Assembly: GCA_963827165.1 (NCBI GenBank)
Contig: CAWGZR010000003.1
Location: forward strand, 160,001 to 224,000
Length of the DNA stretch: 64,000 nucleotides
Source of the DNA: Candidatus Bathyarchaeota archaeon
GTDB taxonomy: Archaea; Thermoproteota; Bathyarchaeia; Bathyarchaeales; Bathycorpusculaceae
Direction of reading: 5' to 3'
Shown: positions 10,167 through 17,585 of the stretch, piece by piece
Layout of the letters: every line of letters begins with the position of its first letter
Position numbering within the stretch: the stretch's first letter is position 1
The notes under the pieces: generated by a model
The model's database searches: none
What the model saw: the letters and a program-made list of their open reading frames with translations, nothing else
Told to the model about the DNA's origin: nothing
Program-made: the position numbers and the translations under genes

Positions 10167-11066
10167 ATGGAAAAGGCGGTTAAGATGAGCAGTTTAACGT
10201 TTTATTTGGTTGATGTTTTTGGGCAGGAAAAATACGCGGGCAACCAGCTGGCGGTCTTCGTAAACGCAGGTAACTTGTCGACGACGCAGATGCAGAAGTT
10301 AGCAAACGAGATGCATTTCTCTGAAACAACATTCATACTCGGAAATGATAAGTACATGGGAGGCTACGACGTTCGCATCTTCACACCCACCTCCGAAATC
10401 CCCTTCGCAGGTCACCCCACGTTGGGAACCGCATGGGTAATCAAAAATTTCGTTGCAGATGAAAAAGAAGACAAGGTAGTCTTGAACCTCAGGGTTGGGC
10501 AGATACCCGTAAGCTTCGAAAACGACGGTGATCAAGAGACGCTTTGGATGAAGCAGGTTCCCCCTGTTTTCGGAGAAATATTCGCTACTTCGCGCCTGGC
10601 TAAAGTTCTGCAGCTTAAAGAAGAGGATTTTGACCCTCGTTTCCCAATCCAAGAAGTCTCCACCGGCGTGCCATTCATAATTGTACCCCTGAAAACCTTG
10701 GATGCGGCCAAACGAGCGAATGTAAACATTGCTCATCTCCGCGAAATGGCGAGCCAAGTCCGCGGCGGCATTTTGATTTTTTGCGCCCAAACCATCAATG
10801 GCGGTACCGACCTGCATGTTCGCGTGTTCGTAAATCTGTTTGGTATCCCTGAGGATCCAGCAACAGGTTCAGGAAACGGTTGCCTTGCAGGTTACCTATC
10901 ACGCTACCGCTACTTCGGCAACGACGAGATCGACGCCACGGTTGAACAGGGCATTGAGCTGGGGCGTCCCTCGCTGCTCTTACTGAAAGCCCACAAATCG
11001 GGTGACTCCTTTCAAGTGGAAATCGGCGGCAGAGTATTCTTCGTCGCTGAGGGTAAACTTGCATAG
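10167..11066 (+). CDS. PhzF family isomerase
   Basis: DVF..GNQLAV, SETTF, EIPFAGHPT, EDPATGS. Confidence 0.95.
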   Translation: MEKAVKMSSLTFYLVDVFGQEKYAGNQLAVFVNAGNLSTTQMQKLANEMHFSETTFILGNDKYMGGYDVRIFTPTSEIPFAGHPTLGTAWVIKNFVADEKEDKVVLNLRVGQIPVSFENDGDQETLWMKQVPPVFGEIFATSRLAKVLQLKEEDFDPRFPIQEVSTGVPFIIVPLKTLDAAKRANVNIAHLREMASQVRGGILIFCAQTINGGTDLHVRVFVNLFGIPEDPATGSGNGCLAGYLSRYRYFGNDEIDATVEQGIELGRPSLLLLKAHKSGDSFQVEIGGRVFFVAEGKLA

Positions 11067-11112
11067 GGCTTTGTCGAAATTCTTATTGCCTGCCCATGTG
11101 CATTCATGTGTG

Positions 11113-11424
11113 GGCTGGCGAGTTGGTGTGTGGCTTTCGGACCCAAATTGATGGGTCTGAGGAAACTCCGCCCACGTGTAGAATTGCAGCTCCCCGAAGG
11201 GGCAACGCGAGAGCGTTGGCAACGGAGCAGAAACGAAACGTCCAGTTGGACTTGTCGATGACGCGTTTGTGACGCTGAGTGCGCCAACTTGGAAGCGGTG
11301 AAACGGCCGTCCTGCAAGTGGAAAGGGCAAACAGTCGCCGATGCGGAATCTACCCAAGGCGCGGGTAGCCCGATTAGCCGAATGCCACAATAACAGAAGG
11401 CGGGTTACAGCCAACACACCAGCC
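11113..11424 (+). ncRNA. rnpB: RNase P RNA
   Basis: Conserved regions GAGGAAACTCCGCCCA (P4 5'), GCAGAAACG, GTGAAACGG and AACAGAAGGCGGGTTA (P4 3'). Terminal GGCTGG/CCAGCC pairing. Ends approximate. Confidence 0.93.
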
Positions 11425-11466
11425 TATTTCACTAATACACCAGCCTTTTTGATTATTCAGTAGGTT

Positions 11467-12130
11467 TTTTTGCCTTCCTAAACATATTATTCCTTGAGGA
11501 GTTGTGCAGACATACTGTCAAGCCTGCTCGATCAATTCACCTGCTTCCTTTGCATCTTTGGCGGTTGCATGGTGATAGTTTTCAGCGTCATCATCAACTG
11601 GAACCAAGTGAGTGTAAACGAGGGTGATGTTTATGTTCCGATGGCCAAGAAGCTCCTTGACATTAAGAATGTTTCTTAGTCATAGCGTATTCTTTGGTAG
11701 CTTTGAAGTGCCTGAGCGAGTGAAACTTGATTTGCTTTAGTCGTGGATTCTGAATTCTCTGAGCGATGGAGGCTTTTTGTCGGTCATATTTCCAGCGAAA
11801 AGCAATCAGATTACTGTGGCCGAATATGTAGTCGTTTGTTTTCGGGAGCATTAGTAATCTGGCTGTCAGTTGGCTTGAGAGTTTTTCCTGTCTTGGGTTG
11901 CCATGCTTTTCTGCTACGCATTTCAGAGTGAAGTTCTCTTCATCAAGATCTGTCCACTTGCATTGCCATAGTTCGCTTATTCTGAATCCTGTTTCTTTGA
12001 AGGCTAAAACGCATGTTCCGACTTTTTTTGTGCTGGCGGCAACTAACGCATCAACTTCTTTTTCTGTCGGGATGAAGGGCAGCGATTTCTCTTGTTCTCG
12101 TAATATGCCGGTTCCCAAGGTATTTTTGGC
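11467..12130 (-). pseudogene. Tyrosine recombinase/integrase remnant
   Basis: ETGFRISE (R), FHSLRHFKAT (HxxR), then after a frameshift near 11675 LLGHRNINITLVYTHL (H, Y). N-terminal domain missing and a further in-frame stop. Boundaries approximate. Confidence 0.85.
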
Positions 12131-12298
12131 ATTTCAGCGAAAATATCATAGACGCTGACAAAATCCCGGTCTTACAAAAATTCACTAATGTTTCAAAATT
12201 CTGACTTGTTGTGTCTTCGTGTAATCACATACATAAATATAACAAAATCTAATCAATCTCAAACAAGCAAGCATGCAAAATTTTGGCGTGAAAGAAAA

Positions 12299-13073
12299 TT
12301 GTCAAAAACAACGAAGAATTTAAAGATTCTTGCATTGTTTCTGCTGACTTCGGGGCTTTTTATTGCAGCGTTAAATTCATGTGTGCCAAACGTGAAAGCT
12401 CAGGGAACGGACACTGTTGTTGTTTTTTCATCAATAGGTGGAACAACAGATCCAGATGTAGGCTCTTATAACTATAGTGATGGGTCTACTCAAACATTCA
12501 CAGCAACCGCAGGAGATGGCTTTATTTTCCAAAACTGGGAGATTGCCACTGCTTCAGGATCCTACTCAGACACAGATAACCCCCTCTCACTCACCCTTAA
12601 CGAAACTCAATACGCTATACAAGCAAACTTCCAAACTGTCGTATTTACCGGTCCGGTCAACGTTACATTGAACATGGCTACCGACGCAATCGTTGTTGTA
12701 TTAGGAGCTGTCGGAGGAACCGTAAGCCCCACACCGGGAACGTATGCATTAGCAAGTGCTACAACACTTAATTTGGTTGCGACTCCAGACTAGCGGATGG
12801 ATTTTTAGCCACTGGGTTATCGGTGGCTCTCCAATGAACCATGGCGCATATTCATTCACAGATACTCCGACAGACAACCCATACAACGTTAACCACGGGT
12901 ACGGAAACACTTACACTTACCAGGCTGTCTTCACTCCGGTCAGCTCATCGACTTCCCCAACACCAACATCTACAGTGCCTGAATATTCGTCTGCCGCCGC
13001 AGTTCTGGTCGCCGCCATACTACTCGTAGTTGCATTCGGGGTATTTTCCTACAGCAAGAAAGCAAGAAAATAA
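12299..13073 (+). CDS. Secreted surface protein with two beta-rich repeats and a VPEY-TM-basic C-terminal sorting signal; 1-nt insertion near 12791
   Basis: Signal peptide, repeats (GGTTDP..ATAGDGFIFQNW / GGTVSP..ATPD-SGWIFSHW), C-terminus VPEYSS + TM + KKARK. Confidence 0.7.
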
Positions 13074-13506
13074 AATCTCTTTTTCTTTTTTTTGGTGCGC
13101 GCTTAAAATTGCTTTTGTTACCGCATGCTGGGCAGGTTACTTTGGTCTGTGCGATTCGACATAATTGAGCGCTTTTTGGAGATAATTTTGCCGCAATGTG
13201 GGCAGTTGATGATGCAGTGGTCCAACCTTTCGTCTCCTCGGTTTCTGCCGGCTATGTGCCCGAACAAAAAAGATGGAAACTGTGGAAATTTGCCAATGTC
13301 GGTGTATTAGAGCCAATACACCAGCCCACAAATAACAGATTTTTGAAAAAAGTGAAAAGATGAATCTGGGTTTTGTATTAGAGCTTACAAATAAGACGAT
13401 GTTGTCTTCCCCGCCTCGCGGTCGCCTCAAGTTCCCCTTCCTTTGAAAAGCGTGGGATTTAAGAAGAAGGAGGGCGGTAAATAGTCTCAATGTCGGCCAC
13501 TTCGCA

Positions 13507-13755
13507 CTAGTCTTTGAGAGAGCGGAAAATTACGTTGCCGTCTTGTTCTTTTATGTACAGTTCATTTCTTTTTAGTACCCCGTTTAATGCTTCTTTTGAA
13601 GTGTTGTCTAATTCGCATTTTATCTTTATTTCGTATCCGCCAGTGGATACATGAGATACTTGTGAGCCGTCAAGGAAAACGCAGTTTAAGGCTTCCGATT
13701 TCTTTAAAGCGTCACGAATCTCATTCAACACCGCTAAGGCTTCTGATTTGTTCAT
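13507..13755 (-). CDS. Small hypothetical protein, paralogue of 19618-19863
   Basis: 82 aa with shared pattern A..L.EI...GY.I.IK...S...L. Confidence 0.7.
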   Translation of the reverse strand: MNKSEALAVLNEIRDALKKSEALNCVFLDGSQVSHVSTGGYEIKIKCELDNTSKEALNGVLKRNELYIKEQDGNVIFRSLKD

Positions 13756-14092
13756 AAAAATAGATGTGTAACAAGTAGTTTTAATAATTTATGCAAGCGT
13801 TATGACTGAAATTGCTTTGGCATCCAAGCAGCATCATATTTTACCAGACTAAACCGTTTTATTCGCGGAGCAGAAGCCCTAATTTGCTGCGAGGCGAAAT
13901 AGGAGAAATGGTCCCCAGATATGTTTCAATGAATGGCGGGTTACAACCAACACACCAAGCCTTTTTTACTAACAAACAAGCTTTCCGTTTACTATTTCAC
14001 TACTAAGTTAGGGGTCAAACTTGATTTTGGTAAAAAGATTTATTAAAAGAGCCTATTCTTAGTAAAATGTAAATTTTTTGGTGGTTGTTAAA

Positions 14093-14482
14093 ATGGAAGA
14101 CCGAAAAAACATAATTGCAGAGTATTTTAAGTTAATTGAGTCGGGAAAATTCAAGGAAGGTTTGCGTTTTTTTGCGCCGGAATGCAAAACGCACAACCCG
14201 TTCGTTTTTGGCGATATGAGTGCCCTAACTGACGCAATGATTGCTGCGAACAAAGAGTATTCTCCGAAATATCCGGAGGCTCAGTTTGCGGTGAGGTATT
14301 TGCTTGCAGATGGGGATTATGTTGTTGCCTACACTCAACTTATGGCTTCTCCAAGCAAACCAAGTGAAGGCGGGCTCCGCCAAATGCACCTGTTTCGTTT
14401 TGAAGGAGACAAAATTGTCGAGTCCTGGGATATCACTCAACAAATAATGCCAAATATGCCAAATGCTGCTGGCTCTTTCTAA
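14093..14482 (+). CDS. SnoaL/NTF2-like protein
   Basis: LLADGDYVV...MHLFRFEGDKIVESWDI. Confidence 0.85.
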   Translation: MEDRKNIIAEYFKLIESGKFKEGLRFFAPECKTHNPFVFGDMSALTDAMIAANKEYSPKYPEAQFAVRYLLADGDYVVAYTQLMASPSKPSEGGLRQMHLFRFEGDKIVESWDITQQIMPNMPNAAGSF

Positions 14483-14558
14483 AAGAGGCCAAGTTTTTCA
14501 CCAGATTTCAATCTTTTCTGAAAGCCAACAATGCAATCGAAGCTATAGTAATCGGAAG

Positions 14559-15178
14559 TCAACTTTTCTTGATTGGTTGCCTAATTATTGTTTTCATTTT
14601 TTCAGGAGTAGTTCTTGTTGCGTCAGTCAGGTAAATCTCGTGATGTTTTCCATTAAACTCGTAACCATTCTGTTTGATGAAAGTATGGATATTTTCTATT
14701 GTCGGCGACTCTGCGGAAAAGGGACCAACGTATAGAATCTGTGCGGCTAGAGCCTTCTTTGAAGTTCTGGAAGCGCAGTTTAGAGAGAGCGATAGGGCTT
14801 TTTTTCTTTTTAACTTGTTCTAAAGCTTCATTGACCAAGGCATCAGTGATAAACTTTGGTTGCATAATCAATTGCTGTCCAGTTCCAATTGGATTTGTTT
14901 TCTGAACTGAATCGCGTAGGCTCGTCTGCCCACCATAAGCTCTCAAGAGGCAAAACCCCATAATCTATCGCCATTTTCCCTTTCTTAATCATAAATTTTA
15001 GAGTGTATGAAGTGGAAAACAAACCTTCAATGGCATCTTTGTAATCCTGAGAAGTATTCGGGTCTCCTCTACCATCCGCCATCAGAAAATCGAATTCAGG
15101 AACATCAACAATACAGAACTCTTTCTTTGACGAGTTGTAAAAGTCCCTGAATTTTTTCTTAAGGTCCTCTTTCTCCAA
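14559..15178 (-). pseudogene. GyrI-like small-molecule-binding protein, frameshifted
   Basis: DLKKKFRDFY..FLMADGRGDPN..YTLKF..PLESLWW, continuing in other frames (MQPKFIT...; HHEIYL...RQPIKK). At least two shifts. Confidence 0.75.
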
Positions 15179-15306
15179 AACTGACCACAAAATGTCCGTA
15201 ACATACTCTGTTATTTGAAGTTAATGAATTATCAATCATTGTCTTTCGACAGGCAATTGCGTTTTGATATGTTCAAGTAATTTAGTAACTCGGCGAAGGT
15301 TAGAGA

Positions 15307-15813
15307 TCAAAGATTTCCGTTTTTATTTGGTCGCTTATTTGTCGGTAAGAGGGCTATTGAGATGTCTTGGCAGTTGCTTTGAAGGGTCGAAATTTCTATA
15401 TGAAGAACTTCAATCGCTTTTTTCTTGTTATATATTTCTTTTAACATTCTTGCTCGAAGGTCTTGCTCCATTGAAAGTAAGTCCTGTTTGTGGTCTTTGA
15501 GTTCTTGTTCCTCCGCCTTAACTTTCTGGTAAGACAAGTAAAGTTCTGAAACATCGATTGAATTCATTGTCTCACAAAGGGCTGATGGTTTTGTTTGATT
15601 GAATTCATCAGTTGATTCCAACTGTTCAGGCTCTTTGGTTATCTCAAAGTCAGCGTGCATTTTTCTTAATTGATCAATAACGGAGACATCTTTTTGGTCC
15701 ATTAGTTGGATGGTTTTTTCAGAAATGTCAATTCCCCCGTTTTGGGCCTGTTTGGTCGCTTTGTAATCCTGATCTATTATGTGTAAGAATATGTTTTTGT
15801 TTTCTTTTTTCAT
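15307..15813 (-). CDS. Hypothetical coiled-coil protein
   Basis: 168-aa ORF with a charged heptad-rich C-terminal half. Confidence 0.55.
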   Translation of the reverse strand: MKKENKNIFLHIIDQDYKATKQAQNGGIDISEKTIQLMDQKDVSVIDQLRKMHADFEITKEPEQLESTDEFNQTKPSALCETMNSIDVSELYLSYQKVKAEEQELKDHKQDLLSMEQDLRARMLKEIYNKKKAIEVLHIEISTLQSNCQDISIALLPTNKRPNKNGNL

Positions 15814-16037
15814 TCTTGTGCCCGATTTTGCTCTTTGTAGCTTTGTTCTCGAACTATATCTGCAGTATTAATACACCTCATATTGTTGTTGTGAAATATA
15901 AACTATAAGAAAAGGAAGTTTTGGCTTTAATGCCCCTTTGCACTTATGTTATCTCCAACAGGCGCCAGGTTACCACGAACCGCCGTCCAAAAAGCCTAAT
16001 AAGAAGACTTTTATCGAAAACCGGTTCTAGAGTAATT

Positions 16038-16615
16038 ATGAATAGTTTCAGTAAGGTTTTCGCTTTTGCTTTTGTCGTTTTTTCATCGCCTCTTTAGTTA
16101 TGGTGCCCGCTGTGAAAGTCAACGCAGATTCAAGTGAACCCCTGACGTTTTCTTCCGGATTGACTCTTTATTCGCCAGTAAACACAACTTACAGTTCTAA
16201 TACCCTGGAATGTAACGGCACATTTGTTGGCCCAAGCGAATACGAAGTCTCCTTAAACTACAGCGTCGATGGAAACTATCAAGGTTACGTACCTTGGACT
16301 CTCAATCAGAATTCAAGCAGCTTAGCAACTTACACGTTAGATTGGTCATTTCAGTTGCCTCATCTGGCTAATGGATCGCATCAATTAAGCATCGGAATCG
16401 AAAAACAACTATACAACAGTAATGCTACTCTAACCAGTCAAACGACATTGGTAAACATCGCTTACTTCACAATAAGCCCAAGTTTTCAATCGATCCCAAC
16501 AGCGATAGAGGTTTCTTTGTTAGCAGTTGTGCTCTTGATACTTGTAGCGATTCTTATCGTATTATATTTGAGGCATCGAAAACCCGTAACTAAGAAAAAG
16601 GGCAACAAAGTTTGA
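16038..16615 (+). CDS. Secreted Ig-like protein with C-terminal TM anchor; frameshift in a T-run within the signal peptide
   Basis: ATG 16038 gives MNSFSKVFAFAFVVF, which shifts near 16080 into ORF 16100-16615 (SPVNTTY..YSVDG..LANGSHQL, TM + RHRK). Confidence 0.65.
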
Positions 16616-16663
16616 CTGGGTTAATAGTTCGCCACAGCAAGCAAATTGCGATAAGAAAAGGTC

Positions 16664-17380
16664 CTATTTCTGCTTGCCTTTTAAGCTCTTACCTTCAGAA
16701 AAGCTTGTGACGTATTTCCAATCTATGTTCTTTTCCCAAAATTCTTTGAATGACTTTCTGTACTTTGGCAGTCGTGATCTTCCTCTCCAAGTGCTCTTGT
16801 CCGCGAATTTCTTTATCTCAGCGGACGGTTTGAAATAGGCAATTGCGTTTTTGGGGCTTAGAACGAAGGGTGGGTACCCATAGTACATGTTGATCCAACT
16901 GGCGATTAAGCTGCCTGCTCTGTGGTTACCTTCGATAAAGAGTTGAGGGTACCCCAGTATTGCGACGTAAATTTCAGCCGCCACCTTCAGTGGATGGGGC
17001 TCTTTTTCCATGTGGTTTTGGTACCATTTTATTATGGGATCGATGTTTCGAAAGTATTTTTCTTCATTGGCTCTAATTGCCTTAACGTATTCTTGGCGCA
17101 GCTTGAAGTCCAGGCCATAATGAACCAGATTATTCAGTTCACATATATCTTCGAGGCTTTCAATTGAGAATGGTTCAACGCCTTTTCCCAGTAATTCATC
17201 TAGCAGCCCGTAGGCGTTCATCATCCTCGATTTAACCACGGCGTTGAACGGAGTATCCTTTCTCCCAATCTTTTCTAAATCAAGTTCGTCGTCAATCTTT
17301 TCCCAGTTATTTTCAACCAGGGTCAAAGACTGTTCAACCTTTGGCAAATTTATTCTCAGTATGTCTTTTTGCTTAGGCAT
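16664..17380 (-). CDS. Fic/Doc-like protein with degenerate motif
   Basis: YPQLFIEGNHRAG resembles HPFxDGNGR. Confidence 0.65.
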   Translation of the reverse strand: MPKQKDILRINLPKVEQSLTLVENNWEKIDDELDLEKIGRKDTPFNAVVKSRMMNAYGLLDELLGKGVEPFSIESLEDICELNNLVHYGLDFKLRQEYVKAIRANEEKYFRNIDPIIKWYQNHMEKEPHPLKVAAEIYVAILGYPQLFIEGNHRAGSLIASWINMYYGYPPFVLSPKNAIAYFKPSAEIKKFADKSTWRGRSRLPKYRKSFKEFWEKNIDWKYVTSFSEGKSLKGKQK

Positions 17381-17585
17381 TTACCTAATTGTAACTCTCA
17401 AATCTAAAATAGATTACTTTATTCGTCTAGCAGATGGTTGGAGCACGACGCTGTTTGCTCGGGAAAAGGCGTTCCATAAATCTGAAAAATATCTCATAAA
17501 AAAGATTAGGCAGTTCACCAAAAGATTGTTGATGCTTTTTTACAGTCACATATCCTTAAGTGGCTGGAGTTATTGTGGTTTGTAG

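Follow-up and report, generated by a model that had tools for sequence, protein, structure and literature searches.

Integration of mobile elements into the ends of stable-RNA genes is textbook knowledge for the genes of transfer RNA (tRNA) and transfer-messenger RNA (tmRNA). The present analysis concerns another stable-RNA gene, rnpB, which encodes the RNA of RNase P, and the remains of integrative elements behind it in a 64,000-nt stretch of the genome of a Candidatus Bathyarchaeota archaeon (assembly GCA_963827165.1, contig CAWGZR010000003.1, positions 160,001 to 224,000), referred to below as the window. An earlier note, made from the sequence alone, had proposed that an element with a tyrosine integrase was inserted here at the 3' end of rnpB. 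Among archaeal integrases, the SSV-type ('suicidal', type I) enzymes of SSV1/2, pTN3 and pT26-2 have been described, for which the accessible part of the source gives PF16795 (Phage_integr_3) as the hallmark (PMC8371274). For phage phiEf11 the chromosomal attachment site (attB) was placed within ffs, the gene of the 4.5S/signal recognition particle (SRP) RNA, and the attachment site of the phage (attP) near the point where the integrase gene ends (PMC12540744, accessible part). The RNA targets named in that part are tRNA/tmRNA and csRNA genes, and rnpB is not mentioned there. The available part of the TIGER/Islander announcement lists tRNA/tmRNA, protein-coding and intergenic target classes, and in the available part of a review of archaeal integrases the term 'RNase P' does not occur. 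No report of rnpB as an attachment site was found in the searchable literature, a scope outside which subscription journals and supplements fall; where rnpB was matched it was merely an annotated gene or a typing marker.

Comparison of the window with related genomes suggests an integration hot spot behind rnpB and, in the window, a composite scar of three layers left by serial insertions, the newest lying nearest to rnpB (estimated probability roughly 0.85). The repeats, the integrase remnant, the recurrence of such arrangements in relatives and the break in synteny on which this reading builds are observed directly. In the window a direct repeat of the 3' end of the gene bounds foreign DNA, the target gene is intact and an integrase gene lies at one junction, all of which is characteristic of insertion at a stable-RNA end. 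The rnpB gene (Table 1) has one match only in the 3.13-Mb, 14-contig genome. As read from the sequence, its outer stem extends to about 11108 and 11427, the leader 11108-11117 pairing with 11420-11427. Its last 23 nt (11399-11421) recur in direct orientation at 13935-13957 with 22 of 23 positions identical, and of 100 shuffles of the window that preserved dinucleotides none yielded two matches, even when up to 3 mismatches were tolerated; this agrees with the downstream recurrence that had been noticed before. A 32-nt core profile was built from 19 rnpB ends of the genus and searched against both strands of the window. It detected three co-oriented sites, which are numbered here by position: copy 1 at 11396-11427 (E 5e-11), copy 2 at 13307-13328 (E 0.0039) and copy 3 at 13935-13960 (E 2.6e-7); a fourth copy with E < 1 was not found. 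Copy 1 covers the 3' strands of the terminal stems, according to the structure line of the cmscan alignment, together with the segment that we take to be the P4 3' strand. The longer 52/54-nt alignment given earlier for the repeat holds in part; beyond the core, 13935-13993 aligns with a paralogous copy on contig C13 of the same genome, core and integrase-side arm together (85% over 59 nt).

The first copy is abutted by a remnant of a tyrosine-integrase gene, designated type B, which reads toward rnpB from the minus strand as had been described, with a PF00589 match at E 4e-7, a tail piece at E 0.007 and a 151-aa piece scoring 30.4 bits against a cut-off of 27.1; the integrases of relatives score 55-62 bits against the same family. 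The remnant lacks about 140 N-terminal residues, and some 100 nt separate its 3' end from the core. With the rnpB-adjacent integrase of a relative (G015; codes with G, L and C stand for genomes, loci and contigs) it shares 79% identity, and with the copy on C13 80% DNA identity over 810 nt. Its translations hold the motifs ETGFRISE, HSLRH and LVYTHL, which presumably represent the catalytic R...HxxR...Y residues of tyrosine recombinases; the gene is nevertheless broken and truncated. The right arm (11413-11454), which overlaps the core, also follows rnpB in G012, G015 and G014 and the rnpB-like copy on C13. Its tandem repeats are possible binding sites of the integrase. In the closest relative (G012, locus L031, 3220-5148) this type-B arm follows rnpB without an integrase, and a 642-codon open frame starts within rnpB and continues through the arm.

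It is proposed that an arriving element would carry its own copy of the rnpB 3' end, so that rnpB would stay whole, and that the original end would be pushed downstream as a direct repeat. Repeated insertions would stack in tandem, the newest adjoining rnpB, and would then decay. The youngest layer in the window would be a type-B element at 11422-13306, of which the catalytic half of the integrase gene and a surface-protein gene are left and whose distal end would be core copy 2. The second layer would be a remnant at 13334-13934 containing an open reading frame (ORF) of 82 aa, and the integrase gene of its source element would have begun just left of the copy at 13935. Of the third and oldest layer, again a type-B element, only the arm at 13958-13993 would be recognisable, with accessory genes following to about 17.6 kb. 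Judged from the sequence, the insertions would have occurred in this order and the crossover of type-B elements would lie in the right half of the core. The tail of core copy 2, CCAGCCCACA, is the exact complement of the 10 nt preceding rnpB (inverted repeat I2, 11106-11126 with 13313-13333, 81%). The present tail of rnpB keeps the outer stem with the leader only via two G-U pairs, and it is regarded as element-derived. Because its tail complements the rnpB 5' leader, copy 2 is most readily understood as the former 3' end of rnpB, displaced by the insertion, which would make it attR and distal junction of the type-B remnant. Core copy 3 would be the junction between the inner remnant and an older one. 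An ATG abuts its left edge, and this layout of ATG plus core appears to resemble the distal copy in G008. Three serial insertions are proposed since copy 3 is followed by a type-B arm, bears the ATG at its left edge, and is preceded by the 82-aa ORF that has a homologue in the island of G003.

The earlier note had described one integrative element at 11396..13984. A single 2.5-kb element, with attL at the rnpB end, attR at the copy at 13935 and the site at 13307 as a chance resemblance, would agree with copies 1 and 3 forming by far the best pair, and small two-copy islands do exist in G021 (1.4 kb) and G013 (1 kb). Apart from copies 1 and 3, however, the site at 13307 is the only match with E < 1 in the 64 kb; it has their orientation, is situated between them and bears the 10-nt tail complementary to the rnpB leader of this very genome. 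Furthermore, the copy at 13935 is followed by the type-B arm, whereas a simple attR should border the native flank, and two extra copies are arrayed in tandem in G003, G008 and G002. A single insertion is regarded as rather unlikely, and the stretch from 11.42 to 13.93 kb is more probably a composite of two remnants separated by a decayed core copy. Nor did 13935 hold as the outer end of the island, which continues past the arm as variable sequence to about 17.6 kb. The window holds dead, composite scars, probably of two or three serial insertions.

The rnpB loci of 17 same-genus genomes, with up to 12 kb downstream, were extracted and oriented, making 18 genomes with that of the window. On both strands of the 19 oriented loci of these genomes (259,768 nt) 14 extra core copies were found at E < 0.1 in 10 of the 18 genomes, the window genome included, and 11 copies in 9 genomes at E < 0.001. 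All 14 lie downstream of rnpB on the same strand; none was found upstream or inverted in the 259,768 nt. In G003 a 26-nt copy at +4.5 kb and a 25-nt copy at +11 kb are both perfect. A perfect 25-nt copy lies at +1.4 kb in G021, enclosing little besides a homologue of the surface-protein gene of the window, and the two copies of G008 each match at 30 of 32 positions. Furthermore, the extra copies share genome-specific variant bases with their own rnpB in G003, G008, G013, G021 and G023. An integrase gene or remnant touches the rnpB end in 8 of the 18 genomes: type B in the window, G015 and G014, integrases on the same strand as rnpB in G003, G008 and G010, and remnants in G019 and G021. Integrase genes lie at this position in G030 (another family) and G162 (another genus) as well. 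Intact genes adjoin the junction in G015, G003 and G008. At least three integrase lineages use the rnpB end in these related genomes. The comparative data therefore support the claim that the 3' end of rnpB serves as attB for a lineage of tyrosine integrases and is duplicated in the process, with the addition that more than one lineage is involved, some of which carry the core in their own reading frame.

Upstream of rnpB the gene order is syntenic in 8-11 genomes, and it is lost exactly at the rnpB end. Backbone genes return at +3.9 to +11.6 kb, and the content behind rnpB differs in every genome. Pairs of a PIN/VapC-like toxin and a small antitoxin recur as cargo of rnpB islands (L039 of G002, +15..+620; L032 of G003, 14404-15032; L163, +1146..+1758), and in G002 such a pair is the sole content between rnpB and a 47-nt copy of the rnpB end. 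In G023, rnpB and its upstream gene occur twice, at the end of contig C4 and the start of contig C13 (loci L049 and L038). One of these contigs stops 2 nt past the core and the other enters a 2.9-kb island, which has the appearance of the assembly forking at the attachment core and suggests that the population is polymorphic for the insertion. In one Bathyarchaeota record (L197, 176-473 and 2861-2965) two inverted rnpB copies flank an integrase gene at a contig end, an arrangement that may be a hairpin-type assembly artefact. A truncated-looking rnpB in G020 proved to be an artefact of masked N bases.

The integrases encoded on the same strand as rnpB are of two types, one found in G003 and G030 and a separate one in G008, G010, G019 and G021. 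In both, the open frame of the integrase passes through the attachment core. The distal core copy has an in-frame ATG upstream, at a distance of 3 codons in G008 and of 19 in G003. A conserved left arm is common to seven distal copies in six genomes, and its pattern was found ahead of the core in 88 metagenome stretches. At 64 distinct junctions enough upstream sequence was available to look for a start codon. In 42 of them an ATG stands in frame at most 25 codons before the core, 25 of these at exactly -11; in the other two frames such an ATG was present in 0/64 and 6/64. In L149, L154, L163, L160 and L183 the frame that opens at this start traverses the core and enters the conserved N-terminal region of G008-type integrases; all five are truncated copies within tandem arrays, and a full-length unsplit integrase gene in a free element was not found. 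The G008-type family comprises 260 proteins at E <= 1e-5. Among the best 120 public gene calls, which are homologues from distinct clusters, 27 begin with translated rnpB sequence or core, and 66 of the 120 cannot be judged in this respect. In species-representative genomes rnpB ends at the integrase start on the same strand in 17 of 27 loci, and a core copy without rnpB lies there in 5 more; these loci, titled Bathyarchaeia, Bathyarchaeota, MCG-6 or Thermoproteota, possibly overlap with genomes already counted. Integrases adjoining rnpB were thus found in the genus, in two other genera and in most loci of one family, so that the refuting condition of the earlier note, the absence of any such integrases, does not hold. 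Tandem repeats of 7 codons (21 nt) lie between the core and the conserved integrase start in P0006, P0010, P0015, P0029, P0039, P0045 and the G008 integrase, and they may be arm-type binding sites inside the open frame. The integrases of G008, G003 and G015 match PF00589, and no match to PF16795 was obtained for them at E up to 10. The nearest solved structures of the same-strand enzymes are XerA/XerC-like, the SSV1 integrase being absent from the matches at E up to 0.01.

A wider proposal is that in Bathyarchaeia at least three integrase lineages share rnpB as a major hot spot of integration and that the G008-like enzymes are independently evolved self-splitting integrases with the att core at about codons 12-19; this is offered as a tentative and, at present, rather doubtful idea. 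If it is true, insertion of a G008-like element would strip promoter and start from the gene and fuse the body of the enzyme directly behind rnpB. In some genomes rnpB would supply an in-frame ATG, and expression of the integrase, hence excision, would hang on read-through from the rnpB promoter.

In a quite different explanation the repeats are local duplications, rnpB pseudogene fragments or a terminator or processing signal that has been reused, with the integrase there by coincidence. Fragments resembling rnpB are indeed present away from the gene, on C13 and on contig C27 of G020. However, the extra copies consist of the 3' end only, lie without exception downstream in the orientation of rnpB, and enclose variable sets of foreign genes. 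Three integrase lineages abut the core in many genomes, the start of many G008-type gene calls consists of translated rnpB, and the element-side arm before the core is conserved over the metagenome stretches mentioned above. This explanation is considered very improbable.

The type-B integrases of G015 and G014 follow rnpB with the same arm sequence after the core as in the window. G162 has a 63%-identical type-B pseudogene beside rnpB in the same geometry, and at the metagenome locus L186 a 92%-identical copy directly follows a core copy. Distant type-B relatives, with 35-47% identity, were matched in 142 of 201 genomes of the order and adjoin tRNA genes in 18 of the 27 loci scanned. The type-B paralogues of the window genome itself abut tRNA-Ala and tRNA-Leu genes, again with the same geometry. 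In a quick maximum-likelihood tree of few rows the rnpB-linked type-B pair stands on a long branch inside the tRNA-linked family (Shimodaira-Hasegawa-like approximate likelihood ratio test, SH-aLRT, 100), and the G003/G030 pair forms a separate clade. This is read as a switch of target, from tRNA genes to rnpB, in an integrase family that is otherwise ordinary and does not split its gene. In one same-genus genome a group II intron domain (RF00029, 56.5 bits; L064, 80-171) adjoins a tRNA-linked integrase gene.

The tRNA genes beside most relatives of 35-47% identity, and the presence of tRNA-Phe and tRNA-Val genes elsewhere in the window, could also mean that the remnant stems from a tRNA-targeting element and was moved beside rnpB by rearrangement, rnpB not being its target. 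Against this, the relatives of 63-89% identity lie beside rnpB or a 63-nt rnpB copy (G015, G014, C13 and G162), the 92%-identical copy at L186 lies directly after a core copy, and all close relatives have the same arm after the core. Moreover, there is no tRNA gene within 25 kb of the remnant. Such a displacement appears hardly credible.

On contig C13 of the window genome (C13:53530-56502; L051, 9530-12503) a near-intact type-B integrase gene (341 + 76 aa) accompanies a gene for an MCM-type helicase of 879 aa, a combination typical of integrative plasmid-like elements. Beside the integrase gene lie two rnpB-like core copies, of which one has 63 nt of the rnpB 3' end. They follow a conserved flavoprotein gene, the junction being within its last codons. 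This flank was considered as a second native target site and was rejected, as the 3' flank of the flavoprotein gene is without rnpB-like sequence in 24 relatives. The arrangement may stem from transposition of a part of an rnpB island, from another recombination route or from mis-assembly.

The coordinates of the features are collected in Table 1.

Table 1. Features at and behind rnpB in the window (positions counted from its first nucleotide)
Feature	Position	Strand	Evidence
RNase P RNA gene (rnpB), complete, single-copy	11118..11419	+	RF00373, 194.8 bits (cut-off 84), model positions 1-288
Attachment core copy 1 (attL): final ~24 nt of rnpB + 8 nt	11396..11427	+	profile E 5e-11
Element-derived right arm: two tandem 21-nt repeats of the right half of the core + T-rich TTACTAA-like motif	11413..11454	+	repeat family D9, 81%
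Tyrosine-integrase pseudogene 'type B', catalytic domain only, frameshifted	11518..12168 (about)	-	PF00589, PHROG integrase families
InlB-B-repeat protein gene, secreted or anchored cargo; 1-nt frameshift at 12789 in the window	12188..13073	+	PF18998 E 1.9e-8
Core copy 2, left half decayed, right half nearly perfect	13307..13333	+	profile E 0.0039 (window), 0.016 (locus set)
Small cargo ORF, 82 aa	13507..13755	-	recurs in other rnpB islands
Core copy 3 (22/23 vs rnpB) + second type-B right arm	13935..13993	+	repeat, profile, C13 alignment
Rest of variable island: SnoaL-like gene (14078-14482), small ORFs, second anchored protein	13994..17585	.	SnoaL PF07366/PF12680

The surface protein, which had been noticed earlier as cargo, was borne out as such by its PF18998 match and a hydrophobic C-terminal anchor. 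Homologues of this InlB-B-repeat protein sit within the rnpB islands of G021 and G014. The 82-aa ORF is similar to a 97-aa ORF in a comparable place of the G003 island (BLASTP E 4e-10, 34% identity), and a near-identical ORF is present in the island of G019; tblastn of the 82-aa ORF against the metagenome loci, the genus loci and the genome gave the self-match only. The small ORFs of the window, this one included, belong to no Pfam or PHROG family. The sequence from 13994 to 17585 has no synteny to relatives, and the conserved backbone is back from about 17586. No core copy was detected by the profile in the island beyond 13993. The SnoaL gene had been proposed as the flank of the empty site; it is not that flank, none of the 20 loci of relatives that were searched having SnoaL near rnpB. 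On the other side of rnpB, an AAA_18 kinase-like gene ends about 60-260 nt before rnpB in about 9 of the 11 relatives in which it was found. A PhzF-family gene (10167-11066) lies between this gene and rnpB only in the window and in G014.

The quality of the assembly was considered by comparing contigs of four soil-metagenome runs, from two studies, with positions 10800-14300 of the window. The contigs are one base shorter at 11676 and 11828 (2 runs) and at 12789 (3 runs). Further single-base indels between the window and contigs of 2-4 public soil runs lie at 13436, 13933 and 13992. With base 12789 removed, the frame of the surface protein is open for 306 codons. Since this base is absent from the contigs, the indel creates the apparent frameshift in that gene, and some frameshifts of the window are assembly-level or strain-level differences. 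The surface-protein gene is thus probably intact in nature, and the integrase gene is a remnant in all versions seen. The contigs diverge from the window at 11421-11431 with six distinct continuations in the 4 runs, one of which is the C13 junction, a loose end. A skip of 354 nt (12068 to 12423) in a single contig was disregarded, its shorter side being only 20 nt.

Several findings weigh against the reading of the window as a stack of insertions at a hot spot. Core copy 2, on which the three layers hang, is statistically weak (E 0.004-0.016), and core copy 3 is without the conserved left arm found in other genomes. A clean empty site was seen in no relative. With 0 matches of the core pattern in the viral contigs of IMG/VR, the search revealed no circular free element bearing an intact attP, and relatives of the G008-type and type-B integrases were likewise absent from viral contigs. 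The search for attP junctions, suggested earlier for reads and made here in contigs, was negative: no contig of the four runs joins the core copies, so that neither an excised nor an empty form was seen at this locus, contigs being unable to exclude rare excised forms. Nothing in the window is intact. Window and metagenome contigs agree in having a broken integrase gene, the changes at 11676 and 11828 only shifting the break, and the genome is itself a metagenome assembly with indel differences from read-derived contigs. Finally, core copies can also come to lie at other places, as C13 suggests. Present-day activity can only be inferred, and none is expected of the remnants in the window.

The finding matters in several respects. 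A single essential ribozyme gene emerges as a recurrent landing pad in an abundant and mostly uncultured class of archaea. Island-finding tools limited to tRNA/tmRNA genes would class rnpB islands as 'intergenic', and rnpB-targeting integrases could serve to mark mobile elements in metagenome-assembled genomes. To our knowledge the rnpB core is among the most conserved RNA-gene segments known, and genetic tools for Bathyarchaeia are scarce. Because the core is so highly conserved, such integrases could be of use for the insertion of DNA into Bathyarchaeia.

The locus resembles that of tRNA/tmRNA-targeted elements in most respects. There, too, the element carries the 3' end of the gene and rebuilds it, the displaced end becoming a direct repeat, the integrase gene lies beside attL, and insertions stack in tandem and decay; moreover, the integrase type of the window is nested among tRNA-linked relatives with the same geometry. 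It differs in the target, rnpB, and in its core, which has no tRNA-like stem-loop and is made up of the P4 3' strand and of terminal-stem strands. Phage phiEf11 is likewise a tyrosine-integrase element at a stable-RNA gene other than a tRNA gene, yet it is a bacterial phage and uses another RNA gene (PMC12540744, accessible part). The G003-like and G008-like integrases are comparable to the SSV-type enzymes, as described in the accessible part of PMC8371274, in that the frame spans the att core, so that integration would cut off the promoter and the initial codons from the rest of the gene. However, only 3-19 codons would be split off in the same-strand types, and not a domain. They also differ from SSV-type integrases in belonging to PF00589 and not PF16795, in being XerA/XerC-like and in targeting rnpB, and the type-B remnant of the window is without the layout that places the core in the frame. 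The core within the integrase gene would thus be a second architecture, outside the SSV superfamily. New here are the choice of rnpB as target and, among the relatives, a core located within the reading frame of the integrase; mechanistically the process is the known tRNA/tmRNA-type integration.

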